IMG/VR virus record: IMGVR_UViG_3300048886_002032
Span: 1-24,037 of that record
DNA length: 24,037 nt
Origin: a virus
Taxonomy: Duplodnaviria > Caudoviricetes
Strand: one strand, 5' to 3'
Shown: positions 1-24,037 of the stretch, piece after piece
How positions within the stretch are numbered: position 1 is the first letter of the stretch
Layout of the letters: each line of letters starts with the position of its first letter
The notes under the pieces: generated by a model
Seen by the model: only the letters and a program-made list of their open reading frames with translations
Told to the model about the DNA's origin: nothing
The model's database searches: none
Made by a program: the position numbers and the translations under genes

Positions 1-1190
1 TCGTTTCCAATTTGTCTTAATTTTAATATCGTTATAAATCTTTTTGCATTTTCTTTTATTTCAATAATTTTAAACGCAACATTCCTTTCGATAAATGAAG
101 AACCGAAGGCATGGGGTAAAGGCGTTGCGGCATCATCAATAGTAGCGTCACCGACAACCGGATAAAACTTAATATAAGGTTTAAGTCTTAATGGGTAGTC
201 GATTAATACTTGATCTAATAATTTAGAGTTTCTAACTAAAGACGTTTCAACCTCAACTTCCAATTCTATTTTAGGAAATTTAAATTCATTACTTAATTTA
301 CTTGCAATGGAGAGTTGAGTCACTTCATTGGTTAAAAAATCAATAACCCCTACGGTTTTTTGCTTATAACCATAGTCCTCAACGTAATTAGTTTCGATTG
401 ATGCCTGTTGGCCAACTTTAACAACCGTAAAAAGTCTTTGTTTCCCATCATTAAATTTATTAATTTTTAAAATGTTTTGTCGGCCTCTTTGAGAGTATGG
501 CCCAAATAATTCTAAAGACGCCCCTGAATTAACATCCCTAGATTTAATTTCCATTGTGTCGGTTGAATCAATTATAAAAACTGAATTGGTTGCAATTAAA
601 AGTTTTGCTAAACCGTCCCGAGTGGAAATGTTATCAAATTTAGATCCATCATCAATTATAATATTATTTGGTGGGCTTATTTTAGAGGCATCAAATGTTA
701 ATACGGCTTTTATATCAGGCTTATCCAATATTTGTTCTAGGGCCGTTTGTGAATCCGTTCCATTATTAATAGTCCCCGCTGGAATTCTGGCCGTTCTAAT
801 AACCGAATCAAAACTTAAAACTCTAAAAGTTAATTCTTCATTTTCAAAATTTTCTCTCGTGCCCTCTTCGTTTATAAGGCCTCTAAAAACGTCAACGGCA
901 CCATTAACATCATTGTATTCGATTCTAACTTTCGTTAAGTCCCTACTATAAGTAAAGATAGACCTATGGTCATGAATTTGTGAAAGGTAACCATCCTTAT
1001 TAATCGCCTTAAGAGTTACATCACCATAATAAAAAACGCCAATATCATAATCCCCAGCGTCAATGCTTTTTCTCATAGAAGAAACGCCCGAATCAATAAT
1101 TTTAGCAGAGACTTCTATTTCATCGGCATAAGTTGTGGCCGTTAATTTTGGAGTAAAATAGATTTTATAATGAATTGGAGTTATCGCCAT
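1..1190 (-). CDS. Probable tail hub/baseplate protein, 3'-truncated by the window edge
   Basis: Not in the ORF track. ATG at 1188-1190 with SD AAGGA; the parts translated by hand read MAITPIHYKIYFTPKLT...FRGLINEEGTRENFENEELTFRVLSFDSV... and, in the same frame at the edge, ...RFITILKLRQIGN. Position is TMP > Dit-like > this gene. Confidence 0.7.
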   Translation of the reverse strand, partial: MAITPIHYKIYFTPKLTATTYADEIEVSAKIIDSGVSSMRKSIDAGDYDIGVFYYGDVTLKAINKDGYLSQIHDHRSIFTYSRDLTKVRIEYNDVNGAVDVFRGLINEEGTRENFENEELTFRVLSFDSVIRTARIPAGTINNGTDSQTALEQILDKPDIKAVLTFDASKISPPNNIIIDDGSKFDNISTRDGLAKLLIATNSVFIIDSTDTMEIKSRDVNSGASLELFGPYSQRGRQNILKINKFNDGKQRLFTVVKVGQQASIETNYVEDYGYKQKTVGVIDFLTNEVTQLSIASKLSNEFKFPKIELEVEVETSLVRNSKLLDQVLIDYPLRLKPYIKFYPVVGDATIDDAATPLPHAFGSSFIERNVAFKIIEIKENAKRFITILKLRQIGN

Positions 1191-1199
1191 TTTATTCCT

Positions 1200-2036
1200 T
1201 TAAACGTGTGAAACTAATTCTAACCCACCAAGGTCCATTGGATTAGTATAAATATTTTTTAAATATTTTAATCTATACCCTTTTATGACTTGAACTAGTT
1301 TTGCATCCTTTAATCTAAATCCAGGAATTGCGGTTGTAAAATGTTTTGGTTCATATCGTCCACCGCATGGATAAATGATAAAGGGTGATTCACTCTCCAA
1401 AAGAGCAATAGCCAAATCAATGTCGACATTATAAACGGAACTAGTAGGATAATTTTTAAACTTAATGGAATATCCCATTGTTTCGAGTGATTTTTGAACA
1501 CTATACCGCCCCGATAAAGTTTTTTTCGATCTTGAATTTCTATCCACACTGATTTTTGAGACTTCGGGATAACCTACAAAAGTTCCTATTTCACTCGACC
1601 CAATAAATTGAGAGATATATTTTTCGGCGTTTGTTGCTTGTGTGGTGTCGATAGATATTTGAAGCCCACCCGTTGAAACCGAATCAAATTCATAATAAGC
1701 CGAATTTTCAGAAAAATCTGTTTCTGTTATATTAGTTTTAGTAACACCACCAATACCTATAACATTTGAGAAATGAACGTATGAGGCGCCTGATAAATAC
1801 TTAACGGTAAAACCTTTAAAGTTACAATCAAGTAAAAGAATTCTATCAATTGTTTGTGTGTCGAAAGTCACTGTTAAAGTTTCGGTGGTAGTATCATTTG
1901 ACCCGACCGAACGCCAAAAAGTGTCGACATCAAGATCAAGAGCATATTTTGCAGAGGCGTTGCCAGTACTCCCAACAGCCGAACCATCTTTTATTTTATT
2001 TTCGTATAGAAATTTTATACCGCCAGTAACCGCCAT
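1200..2036 (-). CDS. Distal-tail (Dit-like) structural protein with probable beta-sandwich/discoidin-like N-terminal domain
   Basis: 278 aa, Thr/Ser/Gly-rich, directly after the TMP (1-nt stop/start overlap); 'YALDLDVDTFWRS...ETLTVTF' resembles F5/8-type domains. Confidence 0.55.
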   Translation of the reverse strand: MAVTGGIKFLYENKIKDGSAVGSTGNASAKYALDLDVDTFWRSVGSNDTTTETLTVTFDTQTIDRILLLDCNFKGFTVKYLSGASYVHFSNVIGIGGVTKTNITETDFSENSAYYEFDSVSTGGLQISIDTTQATNAEKYISQFIGSSEIGTFVGYPEVSKISVDRNSRSKKTLSGRYSVQKSLETMGYSIKFKNYPTSSVYNVDIDLAIALLESESPFIIYPCGGRYEPKHFTTAIPGFRLKDAKLVQVIKGYRLKYLKNIYTNPMDLGGLELVSHV

Positions 2037-4207
2037 TATGCCGCCTCCTCTCTAGAAATTCCTAAAGCCTGATTTTCAATTTGTCTGGCCGTTAATACTT
2101 GACTGGCCTCTTCTCCATCGAACCCTATAATAACTTGGGTTGTTGATTCATTTCCAAAAACCTCTTCATCTCTTGAAGCCCCAATTGCATTTAAAGCATC
2201 ATTGGCATCTCTTTGAGGTATTACTAATTCACCGGGCATTAACATGGCCGGCACCGAATCTATTCCTTTAATTCCACCTGAAACAATTCCCCCATCAGCA
2301 AGTTTTTGAGCATTTAATCTATGAAGTTGTTCAACTCCAAAAGCTACTTGAGCCGCGGCCAAAACACCGCCTATTATAGGACCGGCCGGAACACCGAAAA
2401 ATTCGACCGCCCCTTTCATAGCACTTGACGCCGCCGCCGCTGTATTGGCCACGATTGAAACATTGGCCCCAACTTTTGCAATGGCCCTCAACTCTTTATT
2501 AGATGAAGAGGCCATTGCCGAAAATTGAGAAGCAAACTTATCGGCCTCTTTAAAACGGCTATCATCCAAAAATTTCATAGTTTTATAATAGGACTTCATC
2601 CCACCGATTAATTTTAAATTATGTTTCTGCTCAAATTTTAATTCGTCGTTTTGATCTTTTAATCTCTTTTTTTGTTTTTCATCAAAGGCCTGTTGCTCTA
2701 ATTCTTTTTCGGTTACTATAAATTTAGAGAGTTCTTCTAATTTTAAAAGTCTCTCTTCCTCGGTATAAAGACGAAACATTTCATCATATTCTTGATTCAT
2801 TTCCATTTTTGCAAGCTGTTCTTCTCCAAGTAATTCAAGAGTCTTATTCTTATATCGTTCCTGCTCCTCATAAAGTCTTTTATTATAATATTTAATTGTT
2901 TGGTAAACGGATTCGGCGGCTTTAGTAACTGGAATAGTAGTACTCGCAGGTGCGTCATTCCATTTCTTGTCTACATTTTTTTTAAAAGAATCAAAATCAG
3001 CGTCAACTTTTTTAAGAGAGTCACTAATTACGTCTTTTATTAAAGTAAAATGGGTTACCATATGGGCCGGGTTAAATATAAACTCGGTTGAAAAATAAGA
3101 TGCGATTGTTGTAAAAAATTTTTTTGCCGTAATTCCTATAGTATCAAAACCTTTTATAAAAAGCTTAACCGTTTCTTTCCAAAGTAATTTTGTTCGATCT
3201 ACATTCTTTACAAAGTCAGACATAAAAGTGGTTATTGCTACCGATGCCCCTATAACTAAAGCCCCAATACCGGTCGACATAAGAGTCGCCCTAAAACCTT
3301 TTAATGAAATAGAGGCCGCTGTAATTGCCGTTCTTAATCCATAAAAACCGGCCGCCGCCGTAGCAAGACCCGCTGTTAATGCCGCCAAATTTGTAGCAAA
3401 CAATAAAACCGTTCCGGCCATATCTGCAAATTCTTTTCCATGGGTTTTTAATAGTTTTACTAGAATTTCATTTAACCAATGGGCCATTTCTGATAATGGT
3501 TTCGTTAATTTTTTACCGATAATTTCTGCTATATCTCCAAGAGTGTTCCCTAATTGAATAAATCGACCGGTCCCTTCGGCCGTTGCTCTTGCTTGCCCAC
3601 CGAATTGGACTTGTAATTCTTTTAAAATAATTGCTTGAGCAGAAGCCACGTCATTTATTTTCACGAAAGATTTAACGAGGTCTTTTTGCTCCTCACTGAA
3701 TTGAATGCCGGCCCGAGTCATGGCCGTTATACCTAGGATAGGGTCATTTAAAGCTTTACCTAACATCAAGGCCGAACTTTTTAAGTCAGTACCTAAAGCG
3801 GCCGACATGTCTAAAACAGTTTCTGTCGCCTTTGGAAAAACATCTTTTCCAATTTTAGTAAAAGTTAAAAGTAAAGATTGAGCGCCTATAATGGCCTCAT
3901 CTCCAAAAGTTGAAACCTCTTGAAGGCTACTTGCCATGTTAGTTAATTCTTTAGCTGTTAACCCAACGGCATTCCCAGTTGATTTTAAGGCGGCCCCTAA
4001 TCTCGTTTCGGCTTGCTCTTGAACTCTATAAGTAGCAATTAACCCGGCTATTGTAGCCGATAAACCGGCAAAGGCTATTGTGGCCTTTGTTGCAATTCCA
4101 CTTAATGTTTGTTGTAGCTTTTTAGTACTCTTTTCGGTTTGGCCTAACGCTTTTTGAAAGTCGGCCGTGTCACCATTTATTTTTATCGTTAAATTATTGA
4201 CCGCCAT
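2036..4207 (-). CDS. Tail tape measure protein
   Basis: 723 aa, Ala/Gly/Leu-rich helical; typical N-terminus 'LTIKINGDTADFQKAL', 'GKALNDPILGITAMTRAGI' motif and C-terminal 'LADGGIV...DSVPAMLMPGELVIP'; follows the chaperone genes. Confidence 0.92.
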   Translation of the reverse strand: MAVNNLTIKINGDTADFQKALGQTEKSTKKLQQTLSGIATKATIAFAGLSATIAGLIATYRVQEQAETRLGAALKSTGNAVGLTAKELTNMASSLQEVSTFGDEAIIGAQSLLLTFTKIGKDVFPKATETVLDMSAALGTDLKSSALMLGKALNDPILGITAMTRAGIQFSEEQKDLVKSFVKINDVASAQAIILKELQVQFGGQARATAEGTGRFIQLGNTLGDIAEIIGKKLTKPLSEMAHWLNEILVKLLKTHGKEFADMAGTVLLFATNLAALTAGLATAAAGFYGLRTAITAASISLKGFRATLMSTGIGALVIGASVAITTFMSDFVKNVDRTKLLWKETVKLFIKGFDTIGITAKKFFTTIASYFSTEFIFNPAHMVTHFTLIKDVISDSLKKVDADFDSFKKNVDKKWNDAPASTTIPVTKAAESVYQTIKYYNKRLYEEQERYKNKTLELLGEEQLAKMEMNQEYDEMFRLYTEEERLLKLEELSKFIVTEKELEQQAFDEKQKKRLKDQNDELKFEQKHNLKLIGGMKSYYKTMKFLDDSRFKEADKFASQFSAMASSSNKELRAIAKVGANVSIVANTAAAASSAMKGAVEFFGVPAGPIIGGVLAAAQVAFGVEQLHRLNAQKLADGGIVSGGIKGIDSVPAMLMPGELVIPQRDANDALNAIGASRDEEVFGNESTTQVIIGFDGEEASQVLTARQIENQALGISREEAA

Positions 4208-8088: not shown

Positions 8089-9021
8089 TTAGGCCACGGC
8101 ATTTTTAATTAAATATGCAGCGCTAACATTACTTAGAAATAAATCATAAGCATCCTCAACCAAAACAGCGGTCGAACCTGGAGGGTTATTTACAGCATAC
8201 TTATAAACTTTTCGTGGAGCAGATTGTTGGATTCTATAACCAAGAGAAACCTGATAAGGCGCTGCACGATCGGGGACAACTGCAAAAATTGCATTTTTAC
8301 CGAAGGCCGGTGCCAATGAACTCGTTTGACCTTCTGCTGCTGATTCATACATAACTTCTGAAATGATTAACTTATCAACTCCAAAAGCAACGGCCAATTC
8401 ATCATGGCTCAACCCACCGCCTCTATTATATTTATATCCTAGAGCGTCAAGAATTTTACCAGAAAATCTAATCTGATTCCAAACTTGCCACGACATAATT
8501 AAAGCGTTTGGCGGTCGGCCACAACCATCTTGTATAGTGGTTCGTGCTGTAGAGGCATCACCAAGAGGGTCGCTATTAGTATAATCACTCCATTGGGCCG
8601 TTCCTGACAATGTAGTATTTTGTGTTAGTGTTGCGGTATTTCCTAAAGCATCACCAAGAGTTTTTTCTTTTTCAATCATCAATTGAGTTGTTAATCCAAT
8701 GACTTCATCTCTCATGGCATCATAAGGAGAATCGTACAAATTTATTTTATCATCATTTGTGACAAGGCCTTCAAGACCATGCCCCTCTACAGTATAAGTC
8801 GATTGACTTCTAGTAACGGCCTCGACTCTTCTATACTCGCCACGGCCTCCAATATAATTTTGTTCGATTCTAAGATGGTTAGTTCCATACTTAGCAAGTT
8901 TCCCGGATTTTTGGGCAACCCTTACTTCGGGTAGAATTTTTTCGCAGGCATAACCTTCGGGGATATAAGCAGAGGATGCTTGAGTTAAAAGTTTATCTAC
9001 AATTGCGGTCATTTGTGACAT
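8089..9021 (-). CDS. Major capsid protein (HK97 fold)
   Basis: 310 aa, SD AAGGAG, 'LSGTAQWSDYTNSDP' and terminal 'AAYLIKNAVA' typical of lambda-E-like MCPs; follows protease and decoration genes. Confidence 0.9.
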   Translation of the reverse strand: MSQMTAIVDKLLTQASSAYIPEGYACEKILPEVRVAQKSGKLAKYGTNHLRIEQNYIGGRGEYRRVEAVTRSQSTYTVEGHGLEGLVTNDDKINLYDSPYDAMRDEVIGLTTQLMIEKEKTLGDALGNTATLTQNTTLSGTAQWSDYTNSDPLGDASTARTTIQDGCGRPPNALIMSWQVWNQIRFSGKILDALGYKYNRGGGLSHDELAVAFGVDKLIISEVMYESAAEGQTSSLAPAFGKNAIFAVVPDRAAPYQVSLGYRIQQSAPRKVYKYAVNNPPGSTAVLVEDAYDLFLSNVSAAYLIKNAVA

Positions 9022-10768: not shown

Positions 10769-11684
10769 TTCTCTCTGAAAATTGTAAATATTTTTCTATC
10801 TTTATCTTTTCGGTTTTATTTTTGGCTTTTACTCCTAACCTTTCAATCTTTCGACCCTTAAGATCACCGATTAAAATAGGCTCGTGTACTGATCTACAAT
10901 TCCAATGGAGAGGAGGCTCAAATTTAAATCTATTCGGATCATCTTTCGCAAAAATCTGGCCATTTAAATTTTCACAGAGGGGGGTACGGTTAATCTGATA
11001 ATTGTTAACGAATTCGTAGGCTTCGATAAGTTTATCCACTTCAGGGTCATTAAAAAAAGCCGACCTTGCCTCTCCTATAGCTTGGTGAGCTGTTAAAGGA
11101 GCGCCGGCCCTAACCGATGGACCGTCTATAAAATCCATGGCCGTTTCTTTTAGATCGTTCTTAATTTGATTTATACTTTTTTGTTGTGCCAATGAAGTTG
11201 AAAATTGAAAATAAATGGCCTTTTCTAAATCTGATAATTGAGTTTTAACCAATAGCTCTTGTTGAAACTTAATTCTCTTTTTTACCGAAGGTGGTAACTT
11301 CGAAAACATAGTTTCTATTTTTTTACCTTTAACTGATTTACCTTTTAACTTTTTGGCTTTTTTACTTTCAACAAATTGAATCGACTCAAAATCAATCTCA
11401 CTCAATTTATATTTTGCTTTAGGGACTTCTTTTTTTGCAAGTCTTAAAGATTCATAAGCAATAACAGTTAAAGTCTCTAATAATTCTTTTTTATAAAAGT
11501 TGGTGCCAGAGGCGGTAAGTCCTTTTACCGCCTCTAGCTTATTGGAAGAAGTGAGACCTTTATCCTTGGCCTCTATTCTATTTATAAGAGAGTCGGCCAT
11601 GTAAGACAAATTACTTTGCATTACATCTAAGACACCGGCCTCTGCATCTTTTAAAAAACGGTCTAATTCACTTCTAATCGCCAT
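10710..11684 (-). CDS. Minor head protein (Mu gpF / SPP1 gp7-like)
   Basis: 'RTPLCENLNG' and 'PPLHWNCRS' motifs; directly after the portal. Confidence 0.88.
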   Translation of the reverse strand: MAIRSELDRFLKDAEAGVLDVMQSNLSYMADSLINRIEAKDKGLTSSNKLEAVKGLTASGTNFYKKELLETLTVIAYESLRLAKKEVPKAKYKLSEIDFESIQFVESKKAKKLKGKSVKGKKIETMFSKLPPSVKKRIKFQQELLVKTQLSDLEKAIYFQFSTSLAQQKSINQIKNDLKETAMDFIDGPSVRAGAPLTAHQAIGEARSAFFNDPEVDKLIEAYEFVNNYQINRTPLCENLNGQIFAKDDPNRFKFEPPLHWNCRSVHEPILIGDLKGRKIERLGVKAKNKTEKIKIEKYLQFSERNENAESYEGEAWKHPINCC

Positions 11685-13084
11685 TAAAGACCCCTTCTAT
11701 TCTCTCTTATAATTTTAAACTTTTCAGATAAACTCATTTCATTATTCGGTTGAGGTGACCCTTGTACTCTTTGGCCTTCGTCACTCATTTCAGTTATACC
11801 AAGTCTTTTTCTCAAATGTTTTTCTAAATTATCATCGGGCGTTAATATTTGGGCCGTTGTTAAAATATTTAATATATCGGCCAATTCTTTTCCAGCTTTA
11901 TCAGAAATTCCAGAAAATTGTAACTTAGGGTATTTATCCCTAGGTCCGAAGTTCATTTTAACTAATTCAGGAATTAAATTTCTATTTATTTGGTCGGCTA
12001 TTTCATTGGCCAAAAATTCAAGGCCTGTTAAAAAGAAGTCAGATAGATCATTTGATAAAGCATAGGCCCCGGAACCACTCATACCTAATTCTAAAAAATT
12101 GGCCAAAAAAGCTTTAACCATTCTCTTATCCTCATTCTCAATTGAAACCTCAACCTTAGAAGGGTCATAGCTATTAGTATTTAAATCAATATCAAAACCT
12201 TCGGGCTTAATTAAATAATTAGATTGATGAGTGGTATATTTTTCTAAGGCCGTAATAAGTTTTGCATATTGAGTTGATGATTGTTTACCTTGGGGAATAG
12301 TAGCTATCGGAGTCGGCACCGCAAATTTCTCAATACCAATAGCATTAATTTTATTATAATTATTTTTACGCCACCAATTTCCATAGCAAGGCCTAAGAGC
12401 GCTTATCCCTTCATAATTTGAACCTTCTCTATTTAAAGTAAATAGTAATAAATATTTTGCTGGAATTTCGGCATCCCTTGCTAAATCACCATAGGCCAAC
12501 TGCAAAACGCTCTCTAATTCTCCGGTCTCTTTATTTAAATTCCATTGGTCAATTGTTTTAGGAGACCTCCACGAAATGTTTCTTATCCCTGTATAAGAAT
12601 TTAAAATAGTGTTACCTTCATTATCTTTAAGAGGACTATTAATAAAGTTTTTATGGGTTACTTCAAACATAGAGTAACCAAACTCAATCATAGTTAAGGC
12701 CTCACTTAAAAACCTTGGGAAAGGTGTGGCCATTGATTCAAATAATATTTTTTCTATTAGTCGGGCATCATTATGATAATAAGAATCATCACCGGCCGGT
12801 AAAATTTCAGCGCTTGCCGATTTAATAGGATTTTTAACAGCACTAAGGCACATCATGACTTGAGGGTCGGACCTTCTCATCTTATCGAATACAACCGCCC
12901 TTTCACTATTTTTTAAGACATCCAAATAGTCTTCATCAAAATAACCTGAGAATATTTCAGTTCCCGACGAACCTATAGGGTTATGATGAAAGGCCGGTAA
13001 TTCATTATTTTCTTCCGATTCAATTTTATCCTCGGTCGAACCTAAGTTTAGTAATTTTGTCATAAAACCCATATTGATCACCAT
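11684..13084 (-). CDS. Portal protein (Mu gp29/DUF935-like)
   Basis: 466 aa after TerL; 'GISALRPCY..W..K', 'IEKFAVPTP', 'GAYALS', 'INRNLIPELVKMNFG' motifs. The start may be at 13072. Confidence 0.9.
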   Translation of the reverse strand: MVINMGFMTKLLNLGSTEDKIESEENNELPAFHHNPIGSSGTEIFSGYFDEDYLDVLKNSERAVVFDKMRRSDPQVMMCLSAVKNPIKSASAEILPAGDDSYYHNDARLIEKILFESMATPFPRFLSEALTMIEFGYSMFEVTHKNFINSPLKDNEGNTILNSYTGIRNISWRSPKTIDQWNLNKETGELESVLQLAYGDLARDAEIPAKYLLLFTLNREGSNYEGISALRPCYGNWWRKNNYNKINAIGIEKFAVPTPIATIPQGKQSSTQYAKLITALEKYTTHQSNYLIKPEGFDIDLNTNSYDPSKVEVSIENEDKRMVKAFLANFLELGMSGSGAYALSNDLSDFFLTGLEFLANEIADQINRNLIPELVKMNFGPRDKYPKLQFSGISDKAGKELADILNILTTAQILTPDDNLEKHLRKRLGITEMSDEGQRVQGSPQPNNEMSLSEKFKIIRENRRGL

Positions 13085-14472
13085 TCGTTTAAATTTACAT
13101 TTACAATATTATTAGGAATGAAGTCATTCGTAAAATCATCGACCCTTTTTAAAGATAAATAATTAAAGGCCCCTGTAAAGGCATCAATTATATCATCATG
13201 TCGGCCTTCAGGAAAATTTTCGGCCTCAATATAAAAGTTCTCTTTATTCCTACATGATTTTAAAATTTTAATATTCCCGGCCTCTGCTTGGGCCGATGAA
13301 GGTTTAGAGGCCGTTTGTTTGTCTACGTTAATTTTTTCCACTTCAATTTGAAACCCTGATAACATTCTAATAAAGTTCTCTATTTCATTTTTGCCGGCCC
13401 CGCCAGGATCTTGAAAACCTTTTACTATACAACTCACTCCATCCTGTTTGGCCGTGTTTAAAATTAATTGCTCAACTTTTAACGCACTATACCGCTCTCT
13501 AATAATATCTAAAATATAAAACTGATTATTCTTATCAACGCCTAATTTTAAACCCACGGTAAAATCAGGGTCACCCTTATCGCCGTCTTTAAATTCAGAG
13601 GCCGCCCTATCCCAACACCTAACAATATTAGTTAATGGAGGCGTGGCGTTAACCTCTTCAAAATAACTCTTCTTGAAATAAATTCCGGCGCTCTCTTCAA
13701 TATTCCAATTACCATCTAATAATTGAAGGCGTTCGACTTTAGATAAGGCTTTTAAATTGGCCAGATAAGACGGGTCGGTTTTACATAGAATTCTATTATC
13801 TGATAATTTTGAAGGGATAAAGGTAAAGCTCTTAGGAATTCCCCCCGGATAATTTTCCTCTAATTCTTTTTTGTCCGTTGACCAAACCAATTTATTATCA
13901 TCTCTTATAAAATATCTTTTAACCCCGGCCCGTTCTTTTATTGGAAGGCCATCATCTCCTATATACCACTCTACTAATTTCTTAACCCATGATTTAGCCG
14001 ATGGGTTTGTGGTCGCCCTTATATAAGGCTTTACACCACTAACCGACCTATTCCGACTTAACATGTACCAAAATTGTTTTTCAGTGAAGTGAGTCAATTC
14101 ATCAAAATAAATAATAGGAATTTGCGCCCCCTGCCAATCCATTACGTTCTTATTGTATTCCAAGTGAGAAAATTTTAATTTACAACCGGCCGGGAAAACC
14201 CACGTTAAAGACGACTCTTTAGGTTCGGCACCCAATAAGGAATAGATCTTTTTGGAAGTGTCCCATAGACCGCCTTCATTTCTGACTTGATTAGAGGTCC
14301 TTCTAAAACAAACGGCCCCGGCCTCTTTATTATTAAAGTGTCTTAAAAAATCTAAAAGTAGCGCATAGGTTTTTCCCCCACCGGCGGCCCCACCATAAAA
14401 AGCAATATCCGAATCATTTTTAAGGAATTCTTCTTGTGGCCCTTCTTGAGGGCCTAACGAAATATCAGTCAT
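13078..14472 (-). CDS. terL: Terminase large subunit
   Basis: Walker A 'GGAAGGGKT', Walker B 'IYFDE', coupling motif 'ATTNP', nuclease 'WDRA', 'DFTVG', 'HDDIIDA'. Confidence 0.95.
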   Translation of the reverse strand: MTDISLGPQEGPQEEFLKNDSDIAFYGGAAGGGKTYALLLDFLRHFNNKEAGAVCFRRTSNQVRNEGGLWDTSKKIYSLLGAEPKESSLTWVFPAGCKLKFSHLEYNKNVMDWQGAQIPIIYFDELTHFTEKQFWYMLSRNRSVSGVKPYIRATTNPSAKSWVKKLVEWYIGDDGLPIKERAGVKRYFIRDDNKLVWSTDKKELEENYPGGIPKSFTFIPSKLSDNRILCKTDPSYLANLKALSKVERLQLLDGNWNIEESAGIYFKKSYFEEVNATPPLTNIVRCWDRAASEFKDGDKGDPDFTVGLKLGVDKNNQFYILDIIRERYSALKVEQLILNTAKQDGVSCIVKGFQDPGGAGKNEIENFIRMLSGFQIEVEKINVDKQTASKPSSAQAEAGNIKILKSCRNKENFYIEAENFPEGRHDDIIDAFTGAFNYLSLKRVDDFTNDFIPNNIVNVNLNEW

Positions 14473-14669
14473 TGTTTTTTTCTCTTAGGTTTTTTCTTAG
14501 ATTTAATGGAGTCATGTAGAGACCAAAAAACACCATCCAAGTAATTTTTGGCCTCTTCTTTAGAGTTGAAAATTTCAGATAAGACAACGTTTCCAAGCCA
14601 TGGGCCGTGATAACTTTTAATACGCCAAACGGTTTTATTATCCTTTATTTCTTCAAAAATCTCATTCAT
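14469..14669 (-). CDS. Hypothetical protein
   Basis: 66 aa, overlaps both neighbours (translational coupling). Confidence 0.6.
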   Translation of the reverse strand: MNEIFEEIKDNKTVWRIKSYHGPWLGNVVLSEIFNSKEEAKNYLDGVFWSLHDSIKSKKKPKRKKQ

Positions 14670-15447
14670 CTTTTTTACTTTTTTCTAATCTCAACTTAAA
14701 CCTAACTATTCTTTTTTTTGAAACCTCAAAATAATAATCATCTTTTTCTATACCTATAAATTTTCTATTATTGTTTAGGCATGCCACTCCTGTACTTCCT
14801 GATCCCATTGTAAAATCCAAGACCGTTTCATTTTCTAAAGAATAAGTTTTAATTAAATAAGATAATAAAGGAGTAGGTTTTTGCGTTGGATGGAGACTAT
14901 TATTATTACTCCTCGGATAATTTAAAATGCTGCCAGGGTACCTATAGCCTGAATTATTCGACCCTAAATGAACGGTCGTGACGCTGCTATTAGCTGTAGT
15001 AGTCGGATCTCTATGGGAAGTCGGTGACCTCATTCCTTTTTTTCTTCCATAAGGTTTACCTTTAATAAATTGAGGATAATACTTACCCGATTTATTATAA
15101 AATATAGAAATAATTTCATGTTTTTTTAAAGGTTGATATTTTACAGTGGCGAAGTTGCCCGCTGATTTTTTACTCCAAATAAAATCATACTTAAACATTG
15201 CACTATTCGATATCCTTAATTTACTACTAAATGGCTCCGAACCAAACAAACAAATAACACTATCAATTTTAATTATTCTTTTTAACTCATTCCACATTTT
15301 ATTTAAATCAATAATAGAATCCCATCTACAGTGGGTCGTGCCATAAGGTGGATCCGTTAAAACCATGTCAATAGAATTGGAAGGAATGCTTTTCATTATT
15401 TCTAAACAGTCTCCTTTATATAAACTAAAGGAATCATTTTCGATCAT
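14662..15447 (-). CDS. Orphan amino (N4-C/N6-A) DNA methyltransferase, beta class
   Basis: 'GDCLE', catalytic 'DPPY', 'HPTQKP', SAM-binding 'VLDFTMGSGSTG', 'FIGIE'. Likely start ATG 15447 (the ORF track starts at 15486). Confidence 0.93.
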   Translation of the reverse strand: MIENDSFSLYKGDCLEIMKSIPSNSIDMVLTDPPYGTTHCRWDSIIDLNKMWNELKRIIKIDSVICLFGSEPFSSKLRISNSAMFKYDFIWSKKSAGNFATVKYQPLKKHEIISIFYNKSGKYYPQFIKGKPYGRKKGMRSPTSHRDPTTTANSSVTTVHLGSNNSGYRYPGSILNYPRSNNNSLHPTQKPTPLLSYLIKTYSLENETVLDFTMGSGSTGVACLNNNRKFIGIEKDDYYFEVSKKRIVRFKLRLEKSKKDE

Positions 15448-15757: not shown

Positions 15758-16189
15758 TCATTCTCTATTATTAGTTGGAATATTTAAAACTAAATTGGCA
15801 ATGGCACCGCCGTCCCCAGACGCTCTATCCAAAGGCTTATCGGCCCAACCGCATAAATTCTTAAGACAAAAAATCAACATAGTATTATCACCCCTCATAG
15901 CCTTTTCAATTGCGGTCTTCACTAGTCTAATTTTAACAGGGGCCATTTTTCTCGCCCTATAGTCTTGAAAGGTACAATCATATTTCTCTCTTATTCGGGC
16001 CTCTAAAGTGTCATGACTCACTCCAAGGATGTCGGAACAAACCTCTCTAGTCGGCTTAAATTGTAAAATGACATTAAGTTTATCCCAATCAATCTCAACA
16101 CGAGGCCGGCCTCTTGAAACATTTTTAACTTTTACTTTTTTCTTTTTACTTTTTTTAACACTTTTTTTCTCGACTTTTTTTTTACTCAT
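15758..16189 (-). CDS. terS: Terminase small subunit (putative)
   Basis: 143 aa; Lys-rich N-terminus, 'GRPR', HTH-like 'EVCSDILGVSHDTL', 'GDNTMLIFCLKN..GW.DK'; upstream of TerL. Confidence 0.72.
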   Translation of the reverse strand: MSKKKVEKKSVKKSKKKKVKVKNVSRGRPRVEIDWDKLNVILQFKPTREVCSDILGVSHDTLEARIREKYDCTFQDYRARKMAPVKIRLVKTAIEKAMRGDNTMLIFCLKNLCGWADKPLDRASGDGGAIANLVLNIPTNNRE

Positions 16190-16234: not shown

Positions 16235-17290
16235 CTAAAGTTTAAACCATTGTTTTGCAATTTCCCGGCTTATCTTATAAACCATTAAAGGTGGAACACT
16301 CATACCTAAAGAATAAAACCCTTCTCTATCATTTTTAAATTTAAAGTCTAAAGGAAAAGAAGAGGCCAGCGTTGCCTCATAAAGATTTATAAATCTAGGA
16401 GAGTCATAAATTGAAACGGTCGCCCCTCCGGTTCTGGCCGGTATAGTATAACTAACTTTATCATTATGATTTATTTTATAATTAAAAAAATTCTTTTTAC
16501 CTAAAACCCTAAAACAAATTTGATCAAAGCCAACATCATTAAATTTTCGATATTCCCATAACTTTAAAAGAGAAGCATGTAATGGTTTACCGCCTTTCGT
16601 GTCGTCCCTTATTTCTCTAAAAGGTATTAACCTCTCATTAAAATGGAGCTCCAATTTTGGAAAAAAGAGTTCAACTTTATGGGCGATAAAAAAAACCCTA
16701 TATCTTTTTTGAGGTAAACCCATGACGGCACCATTAAGCTTAAATAATTGTAGGACATAACCAATCTTTTTAAAGGCCTCTATTATTTCCTTAGTAATTC
16801 CTTTGGCCCCACCTTTTAACATTCCTAAAACATTTTCGGCCACAATGACTTTAGGTCTTAATTTACCGGCCAGATCAATAAAATCAAAAAATAAATCATC
16901 AAGGCGTTGAGTAACTTGACCCTCTCTAAATTTAAATTCGGCCCCCCATTTTTCTTCTCGTCTACCGGCCGTTGAAAAAACAGAGCATGGCGGTGACCCA
17001 TCTAAAATGTCTAGGTCATAAAGCTCCTCTGGAAAATCTAAACCATTTGGACTTCTCTTTTTAAACTCTTGAATAGAATCAAGAAAAGGAAATTTAGGTT
17101 TTAAGTTTCCCTGATAAATCTCCATGGCCCTTTTATCGATCTCTAAACAACCAATGACATCGTGGCCATTCATTTTATAACCCATAGAAGAACCACCGGC
17201 GCCTGAAAAGCAAGTGAACACTTTAAGGCCGTTTGGTTTTACCTTTTCAAGGTCTTTTAAAAACCATTTATAACTAAAATCAATATTCAA
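16235..17290 (-). CDS. Orphan C5-cytosine DNA methyltransferase
   Basis: Motif I 'FSGAGG', IV 'GSPPC', VI 'ENV', VIII 'PQKRYRVF', X 'LGMSVPP'. Confidence 0.95.
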   Translation of the reverse strand: MNIDFSYKWFLKDLEKVKPNGLKVFTCFSGAGGSSMGYKMNGHDVIGCLEIDKRAMEIYQGNLKPKFPFLDSIQEFKKRSPNGLDFPEELYDLDILDGSPPCSVFSTAGRREEKWGAEFKFREGQVTQRLDDLFFDFIDLAGKLRPKVIVAENVLGMLKGGAKGITKEIIEAFKKIGYVLQLFKLNGAVMGLPQKRYRVFFIAHKVELFFPKLELHFNERLIPFREIRDDTKGGKPLHASLLKLWEYRKFNDVGFDQICFRVLGKKNFFNYKINHNDKVSYTIPARTGGATVSIYDSPRFINLYEATLASSFPLDFKFKNDREGFYSLGMSVPPLMVYKISREIAKQWFKL

Positions 17291-17810
17291 ATTTACATCG
17301 AGGACAAGTGTTTTTTAAATCATCGCCAAAATTATCAACGTCAATCTCGCCAGGAGTGGTGCCTGAACTAAGACCATCATTCATTTCATCCCGATCAAAC
17401 ATTTTTAAATTCTCGGTTGTAAAATCTGGAATTCCTAAAAGGTCTAGATTTTCTATTTCCATTCCTTCTAAATTTTCGATCATTTTTTTTCTATCATGCT
17501 CGGCCAATTCGGCAACATGGTTATCCGATTCTAAAAATAAATATTCTTCGCCCTCGTTTTTAAAATCCTGAAAATCGACCGGGAAATTTTCAAGTCCTAA
17601 TTTTTTGGCCGATTCCAAACGACAATGGCCGGCTACAATTAAACCACTTCTTTTAGAAACTATAATTGGATGTCTTATCCCTTGAAATTTTATTATTTCT
17701 GCTAAGAGATTAATTTGTTTTTCCGAATGTTGGTTTGTATTTTTTGGATTGGGACATAAATTTTGAATGGCCATTAATTCGTGATGAGAGCACTTTATTT
17801 CTACTTTCAT
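17280..17810 (-). CDS. ParB/Srx N-terminal domain protein
   Basis: 'NPKNTNQH...I..G...PIIV...IVAGHCRL.AAK.LG'-type pattern, 'DN..AEL' and C-terminal 'CPRC'; overlaps the C5 MTase start. Confidence 0.88.
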   Translation of the reverse strand: MKVEIKCSHHELMAIQNLCPNPKNTNQHSEKQINLLAEIIKFQGIRHPIIVSKRSGLIVAGHCRLESAKKLGLENFPVDFQDFKNEGEEYLFLESDNHVAELAEHDRKKMIENLEGMEIENLDLLGIPDFTTENLKMFDRDEMNDGLSSGTTPGEIDVDNFGDDLKNTCPRCKFEY

Positions 17811-18721: not shown

Positions 18722-19306
18722 GTGTTCATTATGAACCGATTAGAAAATTTAAACAAAAAGTTTAAAAAAGACATTAAAAATTCTTTAGAAAATGGCGAGC
18801 GTTATCCAAAGGTTTTAAAGGAAGGCCTTCAAAAATTAATGGTTACTAACCATAAAAATGATAAAAAAGGTTTTAGTCCCAAAGAAATTGCCGACGAAAC
18901 TGGCATGAATCCTGATTTACTTTATCGCTGGCGCTATCAAGCTCTAGACCCAAATGGCCAAAAGTATAGCAATGATTCTAAAGTTGTAAAAAGCCTTAAA
19001 AGAGCAAAAAAAGCAATTTTAAAACCTTCTAAAAAAGTTACTACTTCAAAACCTTCTAAAGAAGTTGATTCATTCAAAGACGCAATTTTCAAAAAGATTC
19101 ATCATTCCGATATAATTTCGCAATTAAACGGAATTTTAGATGAGAGTGTTCACAATTTTGAGGAATTAGAAGAGTTTGAAATTACAGAAATTAAAAAAAT
19201 CATCGAATGGGCCTCAATCCTTTTAGAAAAAATTGAGGATTTTAGTCACGAAACTATCGACATGAATGACTTTATTTTCGGTAGCAATAAAAGGAAGGAA
19301 AAATGA
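18722..19306 (+). CDS. HTH DNA-binding protein (IS3 OrfA-like HTH)
   Basis: 'RYPKVLKE...FSPKEIADETGMNPDLLYRWR'; SD AAGGAG, true start probably ATG 18731. Confidence 0.65.
   Translation: MFIMNRLENLNKKFKKDIKNSLENGERYPKVLKEGLQKLMVTNHKNDKKGFSPKEIADETGMNPDLLYRWRYQALDPNGQKYSNDSKVVKSLKRAKKAILKPSKKVTTSKPSKEVDSFKDAIFKKIHHSDIISQLNGILDESVHNFEELEEFEITEIKKIIEWASILLEKIEDFSHETIDMNDFIFGSNKRKEK
19021..19066 (+). repeat. In-frame direct repeat, period 27 bp (KPSKKV/KPSKEV)
   Basis: AAAACCTTCTAAA(A/G)AAGTT at 19021 and 19048, 18/19 identical. Confidence 0.7.
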
Positions 19307-19545
19307 TTTTTAAAAGAAAATTGTTAAAGAAAAAACTCATAAAAAAAGAAAAACAAAAGGCCGGTCGCCCTAAAATTTGGGGGCCGGACGAAAAGTTCAA
19401 TAAAACTTTTCGGTTATCTCAAAAACAGCAAGACTTGATCTATGAGAATCATCCATCCCTTCAAGACTGGTTTGAAAATTACTTTTTAAAATTTGAAAAG
19501 GACATTGAGAAAAAAGAGGCCTTGAAATTAAATTTAATCGCATAA
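19303..19545 (+). CDS. AT-hook/RHH-like small regulator (paralog A)
   Basis: 'GRPKIWG...FNKTFRLS'; 23/52 identical to the 21278..21505 product. Confidence 0.7.
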   Translation: MIFKRKLLKKKLIKKEKQKAGRPKIWGPDEKFNKTFRLSQKQQDLIYENHPSLQDWFENYFLKFEKDIEKKEALKLNLIA

Positions 19546-19556
19546 AGGGGTGAGTA

Positions 19557-19724
19557 ATGAAAGTTAAAGAATTGATTAAAATTTTAAAAGAATTTGACCA
19601 AGAAAAAGATGTCATCGGGGTTTATTTGGACCATTACGAGGAAATTCCATTTGTTGAGAACGTTGAAACCGTTTCCGACAATAATGGCCATGCTCAACTA
19701 AATTTGACGAGTGTAATTGAGTAA
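19557..19724 (+). CDS. Small hypothetical phage protein (55 aa)
   Basis: Not in the ORF track; SD AGGGG(TGA), MKVKELIKILKEFDQEKDV...SVIE*; 'MKVKELI..L' is a common phage N-terminus. Confidence 0.75.
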   Translation: MKVKELIKILKEFDQEKDVIGVYLDHYEEIPFVENVETVSDNNGHAQLNLTSVIE

Positions 19725-19750
19725 AAAGGATTCTTTTATGATTAAGTCTT

Positions 19751-19784
19751 AAGGGTCAACAATTTGTTGGCCCTTTACTTTTTT
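19751..19784 (+). terminator. Intrinsic terminator-like hairpin
   Basis: AAGGGTCAACA-ATT-TGTTGGCCCTT (one G-U pair) followed by TACTTTTTT. Confidence 0.55.
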
Positions 19785-19796
19785 ATTGGAGAAAAA

Positions 19797-20018
19797 ATGA
19801 AATTCTTAAACGAGATTGAAACCCTTTTAAAAAATTATAAAGCTGAAATGATGAAAATTGTTAAGGCCAATAACTTCACAAAAGGAAATGAATTAAAAGA
19901 ATTATCGTCTATTAACAAATTATTATCAATTGCCACGAAAGAGCTAAAAATTCATTCAGGAAAATCAATTTTTAGAAATTTTGACGGCCAAATTGATAAA
20001 AATAAAACGAGGAAATAA
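19797..20018 (+). CDS. Hypothetical protein
   Basis: ATG 19797 with SD GGAG (ORF track starts at 19764). Confidence 0.65.
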   Translation: MKFLNEIETLLKNYKAEMMKIVKANNFTKGNELKELSSINKLLSIATKELKIHSGKSIFRNFDGQIDKNKTRK

Positions 20019-20020
20019 AA

Positions 20021-20437
20021 ATGGATAAAACAACAAAACGCCTAATTAAAAATTGCGCTATTATTAATGATGATTGTCGCAACAGTATTCCTTTGAATGG
20101 GTTAATTCATCGGATTGTAGAATTAAACGCCATCGATAAGGATTTTGGAACTGATTTTTATAGGGCCAAACTTCATAATTGCACTTTAACTTTAACGCCT
20201 AAAGTTCTTTTATCAGAAAAAACTTGGGAAATTTTATGGAAAGTCCAAAATTTCAACGTCTTTAACAACTCAAACGACCCCCATGGAGAGCATGATTTTG
20301 GGATTATTGAAGTTGATAAGGAATCATACAATTTTAAATTCGACTATTACCAAGACGAAACTCTTCAATATACCGCCGATAACTATTTAATAGACGCCTA
20401 TAGAGTTTTAACCATTCTTCATTCAACGGAGTATTAA
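20021..20437 (+). CDS. DUF3768-family protein
   Basis: 'F...NDPHGEHDFG', 'FKFDYY', 'RVLTI...EY' signature. Confidence 0.85.
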   Translation: MDKTTKRLIKNCAIINDDCRNSIPLNGLIHRIVELNAIDKDFGTDFYRAKLHNCTLTLTPKVLLSEKTWEILWKVQNFNVFNNSNDPHGEHDFGIIEVDKESYNFKFDYYQDETLQYTADNYLIDAYRVLTILHSTEY

Positions 20438-20737
20438 ATGGATAAAAAAACTAAAACTTTAAAGTGTCGATCTTGCGAAAGACCTATCAAAAATTTCGAG
20501 GGAACGCTTAAATTCCCAACTAAACAACAATTAGAAGAAATGAAAAAAGGAATCATGCCCAAACAAATTTGTCATGATTGTTATACCTCTTTTTCAGGAA
20601 CATCTCTTTTAGAAGTAGTTAAAGAAATTGAATTAATTGGTCAACGCCTCGAAAAAATCGATGGGGATATTGTAAAATGGAGATTAAATAAAAAAAGATT
20701 GAAAGATCTTTTTATTCTGGAGGATGAAAATGAATGA
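20438..20737 (+). CDS. Hypothetical protein with putative Zn-binding CxxC pairs
   Basis: 99 aa, CRSC and CHDC; SD GGAG. Confidence 0.65.
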   Translation: MDKKTKTLKCRSCERPIKNFEGTLKFPTKQQLEEMKKGIMPKQICHDCYTSFSGTSLLEVVKEIELIGQRLEKIDGDIVKWRLNKKRLKDLFILEDENE

Positions 20738-20909
20738 TGATGAAAATGATTTAACCGATCAAGAAACGGAATATTTTTTTAAATATTTGAATTTTTCTGA
20801 AAAGGATAAAAGAATATTTTACTTAGAAAATAAGGAAATTCTACATAGCGCCTATAAGAAATTGCAATATGACGAAATGATGCAATTTTTCTTTAACTAC
20901 AACCAATAA
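20724..20909 (+). CDS. Hypothetical protein
   Basis: 61 aa acidic, SD GGAGG (start may be ATG 20730). Confidence 0.6.
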   Translation: MKMNDDENDLTDQETEYFFKYLNFSEKDKRIFYLENKEILHSAYKKLQYDEMMQFFFNYNQ

Positions 20910-20924
20910 AAAAGGAAATAAAAG

Positions 20925-21257
20925 ATGGAAAATAAAACATTCTCAATTAAAGCTTATATCGTTGAATATCAGCATCCTGAAAATTATTCATTCTACGCTT
21001 GTTTTAAGCGTGCTGATATTTATGCAAAATCAAAAGATGACGCTATAAAAATAGTTAATGACCAACTTTCATACAATGGAGATCATTTAAAAAAAGAGTT
21101 TAAGAAAAAAGCTACTTTAATTGATAGGCGTATTCTCCATTGCTTTTTTGATGAAGATGACGCATTTTTTTATAATGATTATGACGATAACAAAATGTTT
21201 ACTCAAAAAGACGAAATGATGAATATGGAATATTTAATTGATAAATATTTAGATTAA
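20925..21257 (+). CDS. Hypothetical protein
   Basis: 110 aa, SD AAGGA. Confidence 0.7.
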   Translation: MENKTFSIKAYIVEYQHPENYSFYACFKRADIYAKSKDDAIKIVNDQLSYNGDHLKKEFKKKATLIDRRILHCFFDEDDAFFYNDYDDNKMFTQKDEMMNMEYLIDKYLD

Positions 21258-21265
21258 TTTTTACC

Positions 21266-21296
21266 CGGTGGCCTCACTTAGGCCACCGCTTTTTTT
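21266..21296 (+). terminator. Intrinsic terminator ending the + strand cassette
   Basis: CGGTGGCCT-CACTT-AGGCCACCG followed by CTTTTTTT; overlaps the stop of the convergent gene. Confidence 0.8.
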
Positions 21297-21505
21297 CTCT
21301 TCTCAACCCGACTTTTTAAAGTAACATAACACTCCTCAAAAAAACTTTGTAGAGTCCTATATTCCGAATAAATTAAAACTTCCTGGCTTTCACTTAAACG
21401 AATAGTTTTATTAAATTTCTTTTCATCGCCCCAAACACGAGGCCGGCCTAATCTAACATTGGCCTTCTTAGTTATTTTCTTTTTAGTTATTTTCTTTTTT
21501 GTCAT
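21278..21505 (-). CDS. AT-hook/RHH-like small regulator (paralog B)
   Basis: 'TKKKI' tandem repeats, 'GRPRVWG...FNKTIRLS'; homologous to 19303..19545. Confidence 0.72.
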   Translation of the reverse strand: MTKKKITKKKITKKANVRLGRPRVWGDEKKFNKTIRLSESQEVLIYSEYRTLQSFFEECYVTLKSRVEKRKKAVA

Positions 21506-22412: not shown

Positions 22413-23254
22413 AAAACGTTTCTCTTTTTAAAGTTGTCTTTTAATTCTAAAAAGTTGATAGAATAGTCTTTAACATAAAGGTTTTTCTCTTTATCAAATT
22501 GTAAATTAAACATTTTATTTTCTACGGTTTGACCTCTATGTTTAGTTATCCTTAAAGTAGGATAATAGAAGTCGTTTAACTGAAACCTCTGTAAAATATA
22601 ACAAAATTGGACTAAATTAATGACGCTTTTACATCCTCTTATATCATTCATATTTATAAGCCTATGGGAATTTTCAGTCATGTCTGCGCCAGTATGGGCC
22701 ACCATGATGAATGGCTTTTTGGCCTCTGCAACCTCTTCTTTTAAAGACTTAATAAAGTAGGATTGATCATCTATAGACCTATCCATATAAAATTCGGATG
22801 TCGTTAAGTTATCAAAAAATATTAAATCGATATCACTATTATGAATAGTTTCTCTGAAATAAGCGTATTTAGTTTTTAAGTCATTTTTTTTAATCAGTTT
22901 AGAATAATTCATTTCCGAATGAATAAGTAATTTTCTTAAGAGTGTTCGTGCGTCCTCTTTCGCCATGGTCTTTAAGGCCATAGAGAATTCTATTAGAAAA
23001 TCGTTTTCCGTTTCTTCACTTAACCAAACCAAAACCTTTTTATCTTTATCACACCTTTTTAAAGCATCTATTATAAGAGAGCGCATTAATGTAGACTTCC
23101 CCCCATGGGCCACCCCTAGATATAAGTGAAGGGCACCCGGTCTATGCCCTTTATGCTCACTCAAAAATTTATAGTCTGAAAACCAGGAAACCTTTTCTCT
23201 CTCTTTTAATAGCTCAAAAACTTCATCTAAAGACTCAGAATTAATTTCTTTCAT
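22409..23254 (-). CDS. SF4 (DnaB/T7 gp4-like) helicase ATPase domain
   Basis: Walker A 'GVAHGGKST', 'WLSEE', Walker B 'IFFDNL', 'MVAH', 'DIRG', 'ITKHRG'. Confidence 0.8.
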   Translation of the reverse strand: MKEINSESLDEVFELLKEREKVSWFSDYKFLSEHKGHRPGALHLYLGVAHGGKSTLMRSLIIDALKRCDKDKKVLVWLSEETENDFLIEFSMALKTMAKEDARTLLRKLLIHSEMNYSKLIKKNDLKTKYAYFRETIHNSDIDLIFFDNLTTSEFYMDRSIDDQSYFIKSLKEEVAEAKKPFIMVAHTGADMTENSHRLINMNDIRGCKSVINLVQFCYILQRFQLNDFYYPTLRITKHRGQTVENKMFNLQFDKEKNLYVKDYSINFLELKDNFKKRNVL

Positions 23255-23298
23255 AAAACCTCGACTACTTATTTAATTATTTTATAATGTATATAGTA

Positions 23299-24037
23299 TT
23301 AATTAATCGGAGTACCGTGGCAACCCGATTTTTTAAAAAAGGCCTCCAAGCGATCCTCTAAAGATTCTTCTTTAGATTCATTTAGATATGAATCAAAATT
23401 TTCGTTAAAAAGCGTTTGAGGTCTTAAATAATTTTTACCCGGCGTTCCATTGGCAAAAATTGTATCACTCCATTCCGCCACTTTTAAATCAATGACTTTT
23501 TTGAAATCTTTTAAAGTATATTTTTCTTTGATGCGGGCCTTTATAAATTTCAAATTTCCGTTTGCGTTATATCTAAAATTCTTGCCTGTTTTTTCGTTGA
23601 GATATTGAATTATCTCTTGGGCCAAAATCAGTTCATTTTGAGCCTCTATTTTCTTAGGGCTTAACTTAGTATTAGTTTCCACTTTAACTTCCATTTCAAG
23701 CTGTTTTTTAATCAATGGCGAGGAGGCCTTTGCTTTAGAAGAGGTCTCATTTATGAATGAATCCTTTTTTATAAATTTTAAAATTGATTTTCTGTCATCG
23801 ATTGAGTTGGAATTTATTCCAACAAAACTTTTGCTTGTTTTTAGTTTAATATATTTTAATATATTAAAAGAATACATAGAGGCCGTGTCGCACAATTTTT
23901 TTTGATGTAATTTATTACACTGGAATGGCGCTAAGGTTCGTAATTTATAGCACTGGAATGACCCTAAGGTTCGTAATTTATAACACTGGAATGACTCGCC
24001 GTTCTCCTTGGAGGCGTGGCATAAAATGGAAATTCTT
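23299..24037 (-). CDS. Phage replication initiator with conserved phage C-terminal domain (Phg_2220_C-like), 5'-truncated
   Basis: 'IIQYLNEKTGKNFR...IKARI...DFKKVID.K..EW...YLRPQTLF..NFDSYLNE'; the frame stays open from 23895 to the window edge. Confidence 0.85.
   Translation of the reverse strand, partial: RISILCHASKENGESFQCYKLRTLGSFQCYKLRTLAPFQCNKLHQKKLCDTASMYSFNILKYIKLKTSKSFVGINSNSIDDRKSILKFIKKDSFINETSSKAKASSPLIKKQLEMEVKVETNTKLSPKKIEAQNELILAQEIIQYLNEKTGKNFRYNANGNLKFIKARIKEKYTLKDFKKVIDLKVAEWSDTIFANGTPGKNYLRPQTLFNENFDSYLNESKEESLEDRLEAFFKKSGCHGTPIN
23908..23995. repeat. 33-bp tandem repeats (~2.7 copies), candidate replication-origin iterons
   Basis: TAATTTATnnCACTGGAATG...CTAAGGTTCG at 23908, 23941 and (partial) 23974, inside the initiator gene. 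Confidence 0.85.

Follow-up and report, generated by a model that had tools for sequence, protein, structure and literature searches.

The 24,037-nucleotide stretch of DNA described here (the window) comprises positions 1 to 24,037 of IMG/VR record IMGVR_UViG_3300048886_002032, from a tailed phage (Caudoviricetes), and contains the palindrome GGCC about nine times as often as its base composition predicts. The window and its relatives show a directional, synonymous conversion at the outer base of this word, which needs neither of the two DNA methylases encoded by the phage. The converting activity would be encoded by the host. We give a probability of roughly 0.6 to the reading that the GGCC excess arises by one-way silent conversion of GGCT/AGCC to GGCC through a sequence-specific bias of host repair, and not through the phage methylases.

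There are 184 GGCC sites in the window (1 per 131 bases), the figure that an earlier note, made from the letters of this DNA alone, had reached by hand count. The note had also estimated about 33% G+C, 15-20 expected sites and a roughly 10-fold excess; the values found are 34.3%, 20.1 sites and an observed/expected ratio (O/E) of 9.15. A first-order Markov model predicts 47.4 sites and a second-order model 142.6 (z 6.1), and under the latter GGCC is still the top 4-mer of 256. In 38 hand-picked genes (sites in overlapping genes are counted in each), 181 GGCC are observed, while 300 within-gene synonymous shuffles give 67.8 ± 6.8 with a maximum of 88. All three reading frames are raised (31/11/139 versus 12.5/7.3/47.9 after shuffling). 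The same proteins recoded with the codon usage of two sister genomes contain 43 ± 6. Note that a strict dicodon-preserving null is uninformative, as 139 of the 181 sites are the codon pair NNG-GCC and are kept by construction.

The excess is not confined to genes or to one strand. Non-coding DNA has four GGCC in 1,196 bases where 0.38 are expected; as the note had seen, hairpin stems contain the word, and the non-coding sites are split two and two between a strong stem (z -5.2) and a weak stem (z -1.9). Both coding strands are enriched (e.g., O/E 8.9 in the plus-strand block 18001-21260). The distribution is uneven: the gene at 1200-2036 and the N6/N4 methylase gene have no site at all. Spacing between sites is not significantly even (coefficient of variation 0.84 versus 0.94, p 0.053), and no base skew is found within 64 bases of GGCC. 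A scan for other GGCC-saturated AT-rich viruses covered 120 loci, of which 40 have short flanks and are uninformative; none of the 80 long-flanked loci reaches O/E 5 (maximum 3.65). Seven records were followed up from the short loci: five have O/E 0.8-2.0, and two 4-kb fragments, picked for the pattern, have 4.3 and 5.4. This suggests that saturation at the level of the window is rare among viral contigs. In the literature searched, with partial coverage and supplements excluded, no report was found of ninefold GGCC over-representation in a phage or of GGCC over-representation in Bacteriovoracales.

The position and direction of the change can be read by comparison with relatives. A further record, G003, runs on past the right end of the window and comes back round to the tail gene on the left; it contributes RecT and an NlpC/P60 protein, and with the window it covers roughly the whole genome. 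The sister lineages closest to the window (G001, G002, and L002) are about 75-78% identical to it in core DNA. Among the one-off neighbours of GGCC, only those differing at the outer base are affected: GGCT/AGCC are halved, while GGTC is not depleted (O/E 1.38 in the window and G003 versus 1.27 in G001 and G002) and GGAC stays at 0.90 versus 0.89. With the base compared in brackets, GGC[C]:[T] is 582:94 in the window and G003 versus 372:307 in G001 and G002 (odds ratio 5.1, z 12). At silent transition sites of the core (1-3200 and 8000-9500 excluded as recombinant), GGC[Y] is C at 212 of 229 positions (93%), versus 1,028 of 4,444 elsewhere (23%); in the sisters the same context has C at 28/64 and 41/74. 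Aligned GC[Y] differences are polarized in the same way, with 63 to C and 12 to T against L001, and 41 and 17 against L003. Gly codons before Pro, Gln or His stand at 11:9 versus 12:3, 4:10, 20:6, and 13:12, with no clade-specific shift.

Variation among close relatives indicates that the process is apparently still running. In a set of seven high-GGCC relatives, of which three hardly differ from one another, the outer C of GGCC is variable (C/T) at 8 of 173 sites and other Cs at 309 of 904 (p 1.5e-18), about 7-fold less, while GGCT sites vary at 8/18 versus 309/2,817 for other Ts (p 4e-4). The inner C of GGCC is variable at 4 of 29 sites (p 0.026) and is therefore no deamination hot spot. This is the footprint expected if, at the outer base, lost sites are restored and newly gained ones become fixed. 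The pool of words from which GGCC is drawn (AGCT, AGCC, GGCT, and GGCC; RGCY) is similar across the close family, at O/E 1.3-1.85 in low and high lineages alike. What differs is the share of GGCC within it, which is 0.05-0.33 in most low lineages (0.46 in L242) and 0.58-0.65 in the high ones. The site-creating process supposed by the earlier note is thus supported as a conversion that is directional, synonymous, and, as shown next by the tree, derived.

GGCC is at O/E 7.8-11.3 in relatives of 90-95% DNA identity (L004, L005, L007, L008, L009, L213, and L276), 2.9-3.3 in the nearest sisters, and 0.6-5.6 in other close family members. In a midpoint-rooted portal tree of 24 rows (six long branches are flagged, none in the close group except L252), the high group forms a single clade (100/99) that lies inside a set of lineages with O/E 1.1-5.6; therefore, the high state is derived. 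The capsid gene illustrates the change: its protein is 97% identical to that of G001 and its DNA 84%, and it contains eight GGCC where the G001 gene has two. The distal tail module, on the other hand, is 94.8% identical to that of G002, with 17 GGCC in each, and therefore high and low clades exchange DNA. L276 has two other genes in place of the C5 methylase gene, with no GGCC and 11 GGCT/AGCC in 1,073 bases, in a contig that has 49 GGCC around them. Recently imported genes lack the mark, and GGCC content would date the residence of a gene in the phage. The C5 methylase gene, fully converted with 11-13 GGCC, is likely a long resident, and the N6/N4 methylase gene, without GGCC, is likely a recent import. 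GGC[Y] odds of at least 5 are found in 7 of 107 distant loci of the phage family versus 2 of 126 loci of the methylase family (median 0.59), so that the shift is tied more closely to the phage family than to that of the methylase.

The earlier note had proposed the two phage methylases as candidate writers of GGCC. Both genes, and the ParB-like gene beside one of them, are confirmed as real. The N6/N4 enzyme is excluded as a GGCC writer: it is missing in L007 and L276, which are high in GGCC, it is present in low-GGCC G001, and its own gene contains no site. In three of four sequencing runs examined, contigs skip this gene. The C5 enzyme remains a doubtful writer; it is accessory and is unneeded for substantial conversion, as seen in the key control, G051. 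This genome is complete, with terminal repeats, and has no match to the C5 methylase family PF00145, but among its 4-mers GGCC ranks highest and AGCC lowest. After G-ending codons its Ala codons GCC:GCT are 51:6 (89%), equal to the 154:19 (89%) of the high clade, and after other bases they are 45:201. PF00145 is absent from G001, G002, and G051 (all complete) and from G052 (96% complete), which have O/E 2.9, 3.2, 4.0, and 3.35. It occurs once in 33 further family records (one of the 14 complete ones), in G066, where O/E is 1.84. Homologues of the C5 enzyme elsewhere (143 loci, 39-60% identical, some overlapping) have O/E of at most 3.64, with medians of 0.82 and 0.41. An independent lineage of the enzyme, P0004, is 64% identical and is found in a 29,189-base contig.

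The C5 enzyme has intact catalytic motifs and belongs to the SPPC subfamily. Its closest solved structure is SpCmoX (8YF3; profile E 1e-57 over positions 10-344, Foldseek rank 1). Against M.HaeIII (1DCT) the profile aligns only at 24-210 and 294-340; a HaeIII-type recognition domain is ruled out, since the recognition region aligns to CmoX and not to M.HaeIII. SpCmoX, from Synechococcus phage S-B43, is a DNA cytosine C5-carboxymethyltransferase; the enzyme acts on GC and requires Arg-350 (PDB 8YF3; available text of PMC12783734). The phage enzyme shares with it the SPPC motif and a ParB-like neighbour. Unlike SpCmoX, it has Met at the motif X position of the carboxymethyl-binding Arg-350 in 12 of 12 aligned sequences, and neither CmoA nor CmoY was seen in Pfam scans of the window and G003. 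From these comparisons it is likely an ordinary methylase. A structure model (predicted local distance difference test score 76, from a 12-row alignment) confirms the fold only. The recognition region exists in three versions, one in the window and L008, one in L007, and one in L009. Residues about 270-295 are hypervariable among copies that are 85-96% identical, a pattern that suggests shuffling or diversifying selection on this segment.

The methylases lie in or near a slot upstream of the presumed small terminase gene (Table 1) that is swappable among members of one phage family of about 30 kb. It may contain ParB with the C5 methylase, QueC/QueD/QueE(/FolE)-like 7-deazaguanine genes, ParB with an ABC-ATPase-like and a small unassigned gene, or ParB-methylase fusions; in L276 and G001 the ParB-like gene is kept with other cargo. 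The methylases of this phage are likely swappable anti-defence cargo.

How could the host produce such a footprint? Host repair would turn T:G mismatches into C:G where they fall on the outer base of GGCC. The strand that reads GGCC may be marked by a host cytosine methylase for this word, and the GGCT strand may be cut by a partnering MutH-like or Vsr-like nickase; with such nicking, gains would be fixed and losses undone. Alternatively, a Vsr-like enzyme with GGCC context could convert the mismatch directly. Among Pfam and PHROG hits of the window there is no DNA polymerase. Since a DnaD-like initiator and a helicase are all that the phage has, it would use the host replisome, and its DNA is expected to be exposed to host bias. 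How near a lineage comes to saturation would then depend on its host strain and on the time spent there, and the difference between sisters (9-11-fold versus 3-fold) would probably reflect a longer stay in a host with a strong bias, changes of host being marked by tail swaps. Host methyl-directed repair does act on phage DNA, in the case described in the accessible text of PMC5014478. It is also reported, in the part available of PMC11879396, that M.HaeIII is least strict at the outer base and that AGCC is its best near-cognate site, which makes outer-base tolerance plausible. Of the earlier note's readings, its alternative of a host signature is the one best suited to these phage comparisons.

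The comparison with known systems is instructive, and the note's analogies to HIP1 and to very-short-patch repair are apt. Like the highly iterated palindromes (HIP) of cyanobacteria, GGCC is enriched across genes and frames, as well as outside genes, with one-off neighbours biased at the outer positions. For HIP1 and alternative HIPs a methylase-linked one-way ratchet without selection, through GmeC-directed mismatch repair, is the proposed cause (PMC4390886, available text). Unlike HIP sequences, which have 5-8 bases and occur about once per 1,000, the phage word has four and occurs once per 131. It is found in a phage, a term that the main text of PMC4390886 does not contain, and its cognate methylase in the phage is only a candidate.

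Dcm/Vsr repair leaves a footprint on the word counts of E. coli, and HaeIII-type enzymes methylate the inner C of GGCC. In Dcm/Vsr repair, T:G is corrected to C:G in a specific context, so that words spelled with T become scarcer and those spelled with C commoner (PMC12907096, in the portion accessible); GGCT likewise gives way to GGCC here, and the C[T]GG context, taken up below, fits directly. Unlike that system, the phage has no vsr linked to the C5 methylase, the base converted is the outer C, and GGTC, the deamination product of inner-C methylation, is not depleted. Vsr (PF03852) was sought in five phage records including the window and G003 and matched none at E 0.1, while the control matched 4 of 14; Pfam scans of the window and G003 gave no match to Vsr or DUF559. 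As with Dam/MutH on phiX174 (PMC5014478) and lambda, site-directed host repair would reach phages that use host polymerase, but, in the sources as far as available, those phages avoid or under-represent GATC, whereas GGCC is enriched ninefold here. Phage words can mirror those of the host, as in tetranucleotide signature sharing (PMC1360066 and PMC2917420, accessible portions); the present case differs in that one word and one substitution type are involved, polarity is resolved, and sister lineages stand at different stages.

Several observations weigh against host repair as the cause. No host link emerged from the alignment of the capsid to genome contigs, from look-ups of named proteins, or from atlas searches. 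The capsid alignment gave 25 loci of 28-57% identity, many of them apparently mis-binned phage contigs, with GGCC O/E of at most 2.2; the clusters of 20 proteins yielded a single organism name, for a distant helicase; and cultured phages and plasmids gave only distant matches. A predatory bacterium of the type of Bacteriovoracales, which we take to be GGCC-rich, is a candidate for the host. Of the five high-clade records in which the slot can be seen, four contain the C5 methylase, and L276 seems to have lost it recently. No low relative with a visible slot contains it; thus, the top level of GGCC co-occurs with it, in one phylogenetic contrast. Tail exchange implies that hosts were shared at times, and the difference between the clades may be determined by the phage. 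In the high clade GCC after non-G bases is also raised (97:100) compared with G051. Host mismatch repair is reported to be weak in lambda (10.1101/2025.08.29.673000, available part), and no enzyme with outer-base GGCC repair specificity was found in the literature searched.

Some of these points would be explained if the C5 methylase acted as a booster, a possibility that we consider rather unlikely but the strongest of the alternatives. On newly made phage DNA it would methylate GC or GGCC more quickly than its host counterpart can, and a host methyl-directed nickase would then fix new GGCC (an Elhai-type ratchet), raising the family baseline of 2-4-fold to 9-11-fold. The distribution of the gene in the high clade and its full conversion fit such a role, as do its absence from G001, G002, G051, and G052 and the shared hosts suggested by tail exchange. 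In addition, the profile alignment to GC-specific SpCmoX is whole-length, recognition region included, and under-methylation is reported to limit repair of phiX174 in what is available of PMC5014478. But the contrast is a single phylogenetic one, G051 attains 89% conversion without the enzyme, and the recognition segment differs even among the high relatives. Neither the 143 homologue loci nor G066, with its C5 methylase, come near the level of the window. The gene is polymorphic in the population, as the C5-skipping breakpoints of L276 recur in run X2, in a joint with 30 letters on its short side whose ends match L276. Furthermore, extra Dam gave no better repair in lambda (10.1101/2025.08.29.673000, available part). 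A broader version, to which we likewise attach a low probability, is that phages of predatory Bacteriovoracales are rewritten by an undescribed GGCC-directed, cytosine-methyl-guided repair, into which the CmoX-like C5 enzyme of one subclade has plugged to reach host-level saturation; the repair system would there be a MutH analogue that creates its own sites.

Returning to host repair bias as the preferred reading, selection for the word itself is an improbable substitute for it. GGCC could be kept as methylated self-marks, packaging signals, or protein-binding sites; low variability of the outer base is also expected from purifying selection, and the methylase slot adjoins the terminase genes. 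Yet the word is fed only by outer-base transitions, GGTC, GGAC, and the Gly codons before Pro, Gln or His (11:9) being unchanged. No net shift to Ala is seen (67 vs 74, 78 vs 70), spacing is not significantly even, whole genes without sites are tolerated, and of 463 codon pairs able to form GGCC, 181 have it. The absence of Ala gain and of even spacing leaves the selection for dense methylation suggested in the earlier note unsupported.

A somewhat less probable alternative still is that the host restricts or senses words containing GGCT/AGCC and CTG, and that escape mutations of the phage leave GGCC as a by-product. Avoidance does act here, since CGCG is nearly absent from the window (2 vs 20), and the distant relatives G047 and G048 strongly avoid such words with GGCC spared (pool O/E 0.51 and 0.64). 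Escape mutations could, however, lead to any base, whereas the RGCY pool is maintained (1.55), and GGCT, at O/E 0.73, has by no means been purged; the conserved pool largely refutes this explanation. G047 and G048, each with an unrelated C5 enzyme, had been considered as independent support for a methylase and were set aside, as their depleted pool indicates avoidance. Finally, a translational preference for codons or codon pairs (NNG-GCC), in keeping with the 139 coding sites of that form and with GCC making up 47% of Ala codons, is refuted, as the pattern does not depend on frame: GGCC is enriched in every frame and in non-coding DNA, GCC is favoured only after G (122/180 vs 60/193), and Glu, Lys, and Gln take G-ending codons only before Ala (45/68 vs 219/930).

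Other words are shifted as well. A second change, C[T]G to C[C]G, is present in the window, where silent C[Y]GG is C at 45 of 62 sites and C[Y]GH (H is any base but G) at 146 of 233; the counts in G001 are 1/45 and 38/203. CCGG is enriched with GGCC masked (1.44 vs 0.41), and CTG is down. This shift is as strong as that of GGCC and varies independently of it across lineages, and is likely a second, independent host bias; a single motif, GGCCGG, was rejected for the same independence. CCGG over-representation in Helicobacter is called unexplained in the accessible part of PMC4687349, in which GGCC is not mentioned. Two unrelated AT-rich viral contigs that encode homologous C5 methylases, L293 and L330, have CCGG at O/E 4.5-4.8 and are nearly devoid of CTAG, CATG, and CGCG. 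G047 and G048 (L480-L483), which are complete, show extreme depletion of CAG/CTG that spares CCAG; GGACC is absent, and each has a short-domain C5 methylase. CGCG itself occurs 0 times in G001 and 3 times in G002, while its O/E is 1.9 in G052 and 2.2 in L263; its scarcity is probably due to host restriction that differs by lineage.

The window represents about three quarters of a tailed phage of about 31 kb (CheckV 78%), and the sequencing runs containing it are labelled seawater, marine or hydrothermal vent. Its genes include a Mu-type portal and protease, terminase, tape measure, DnaD-like initiator, and helicase (see also Table 1). Two paralogous small basic proteins (19303-19545, plus strand, and 21278-21505, minus strand; 39-49% alike) flank a block of small plus-strand genes, and their homologues recur in L003, L091, and L093. 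The replication initiator (minus strand, frame of 23299-24036) has a three-copy tandem peptide repeat at 23896-23990, of different sequence in G003, which is possibly an iteron-like origin.

Table 1. Features of the window and of the corresponding slot in relatives (positions refer to the window unless another record is named)
Feature	Position	Strand	Evidence or remark
Whole window, 184 GGCC; outer-base conversion of GGCT/AGCC to GGCC and separate C[T]G to C[C]G	1..24037	.	
Distal tail module exchanged with low-GGCC relatives; includes gene 1200-2036 (0 GGCC)	1..2671	-	
Major capsid protein	8089..9021	-	8 GGCC
Mu-type portal protein, source of the tree	11684..13084	-	PF06074
Terminase large subunit, 18 GGCC	13078..14472	-	
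N6/N4 amino methyltransferase (DPPY motif), accessory, 0 GGCC	14662..15447	-	PF01555 E 5e-31
Probable small terminase subunit	15758..16189	-	position only; kept there in relatives; no family match
C5 cytosine methyltransferase, SPPC (CmoX-like), accessory, 11 GGCC	16235..17290	-	PF00145 E 2e-37
ParB N-terminal-like protein, heads the swappable DNA-modification slot	17280..17810	-	PF02195 E 1.4e-5
Terminator-like hairpin between convergent genes, GGCC in each arm	21266..21288	.	z -5.2; 0/200 shuffles as stable
Modification slot in members of the family	window 15448-17810; L003 189-2974; L252 4613-8180; L276 2790-4391; L090 485-1684; L091 1871-3050		

Footprints of repair on word counts, HIP sequences, and the sharing of signatures between phage and host are known kinds of phenomena. 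New here is a phage case with graded sister lineages and datable imports, which runs counter to the usual avoidance of palindromes in phages and weakens the phage-encoded two-methylase system proposed before. The cause of HIP-type palindrome build-up is a long-standing open question. The graded lineages (GGCC share from 0.05 to 0.65), the direction resolved by the tree, and the unconverted imports beside a converted core provide comparative evidence for a neutral ratchet that creates sites. If the host link is true, an uncultured phage family would thereby have its host assigned, and a new repair specificity could be assayed simply with heteroduplexes. The per-gene ratio of GGCC to GGCT would then serve as a residence-time clock and host marker, and the phage as a small substrate for testing HIP-type ratchets.

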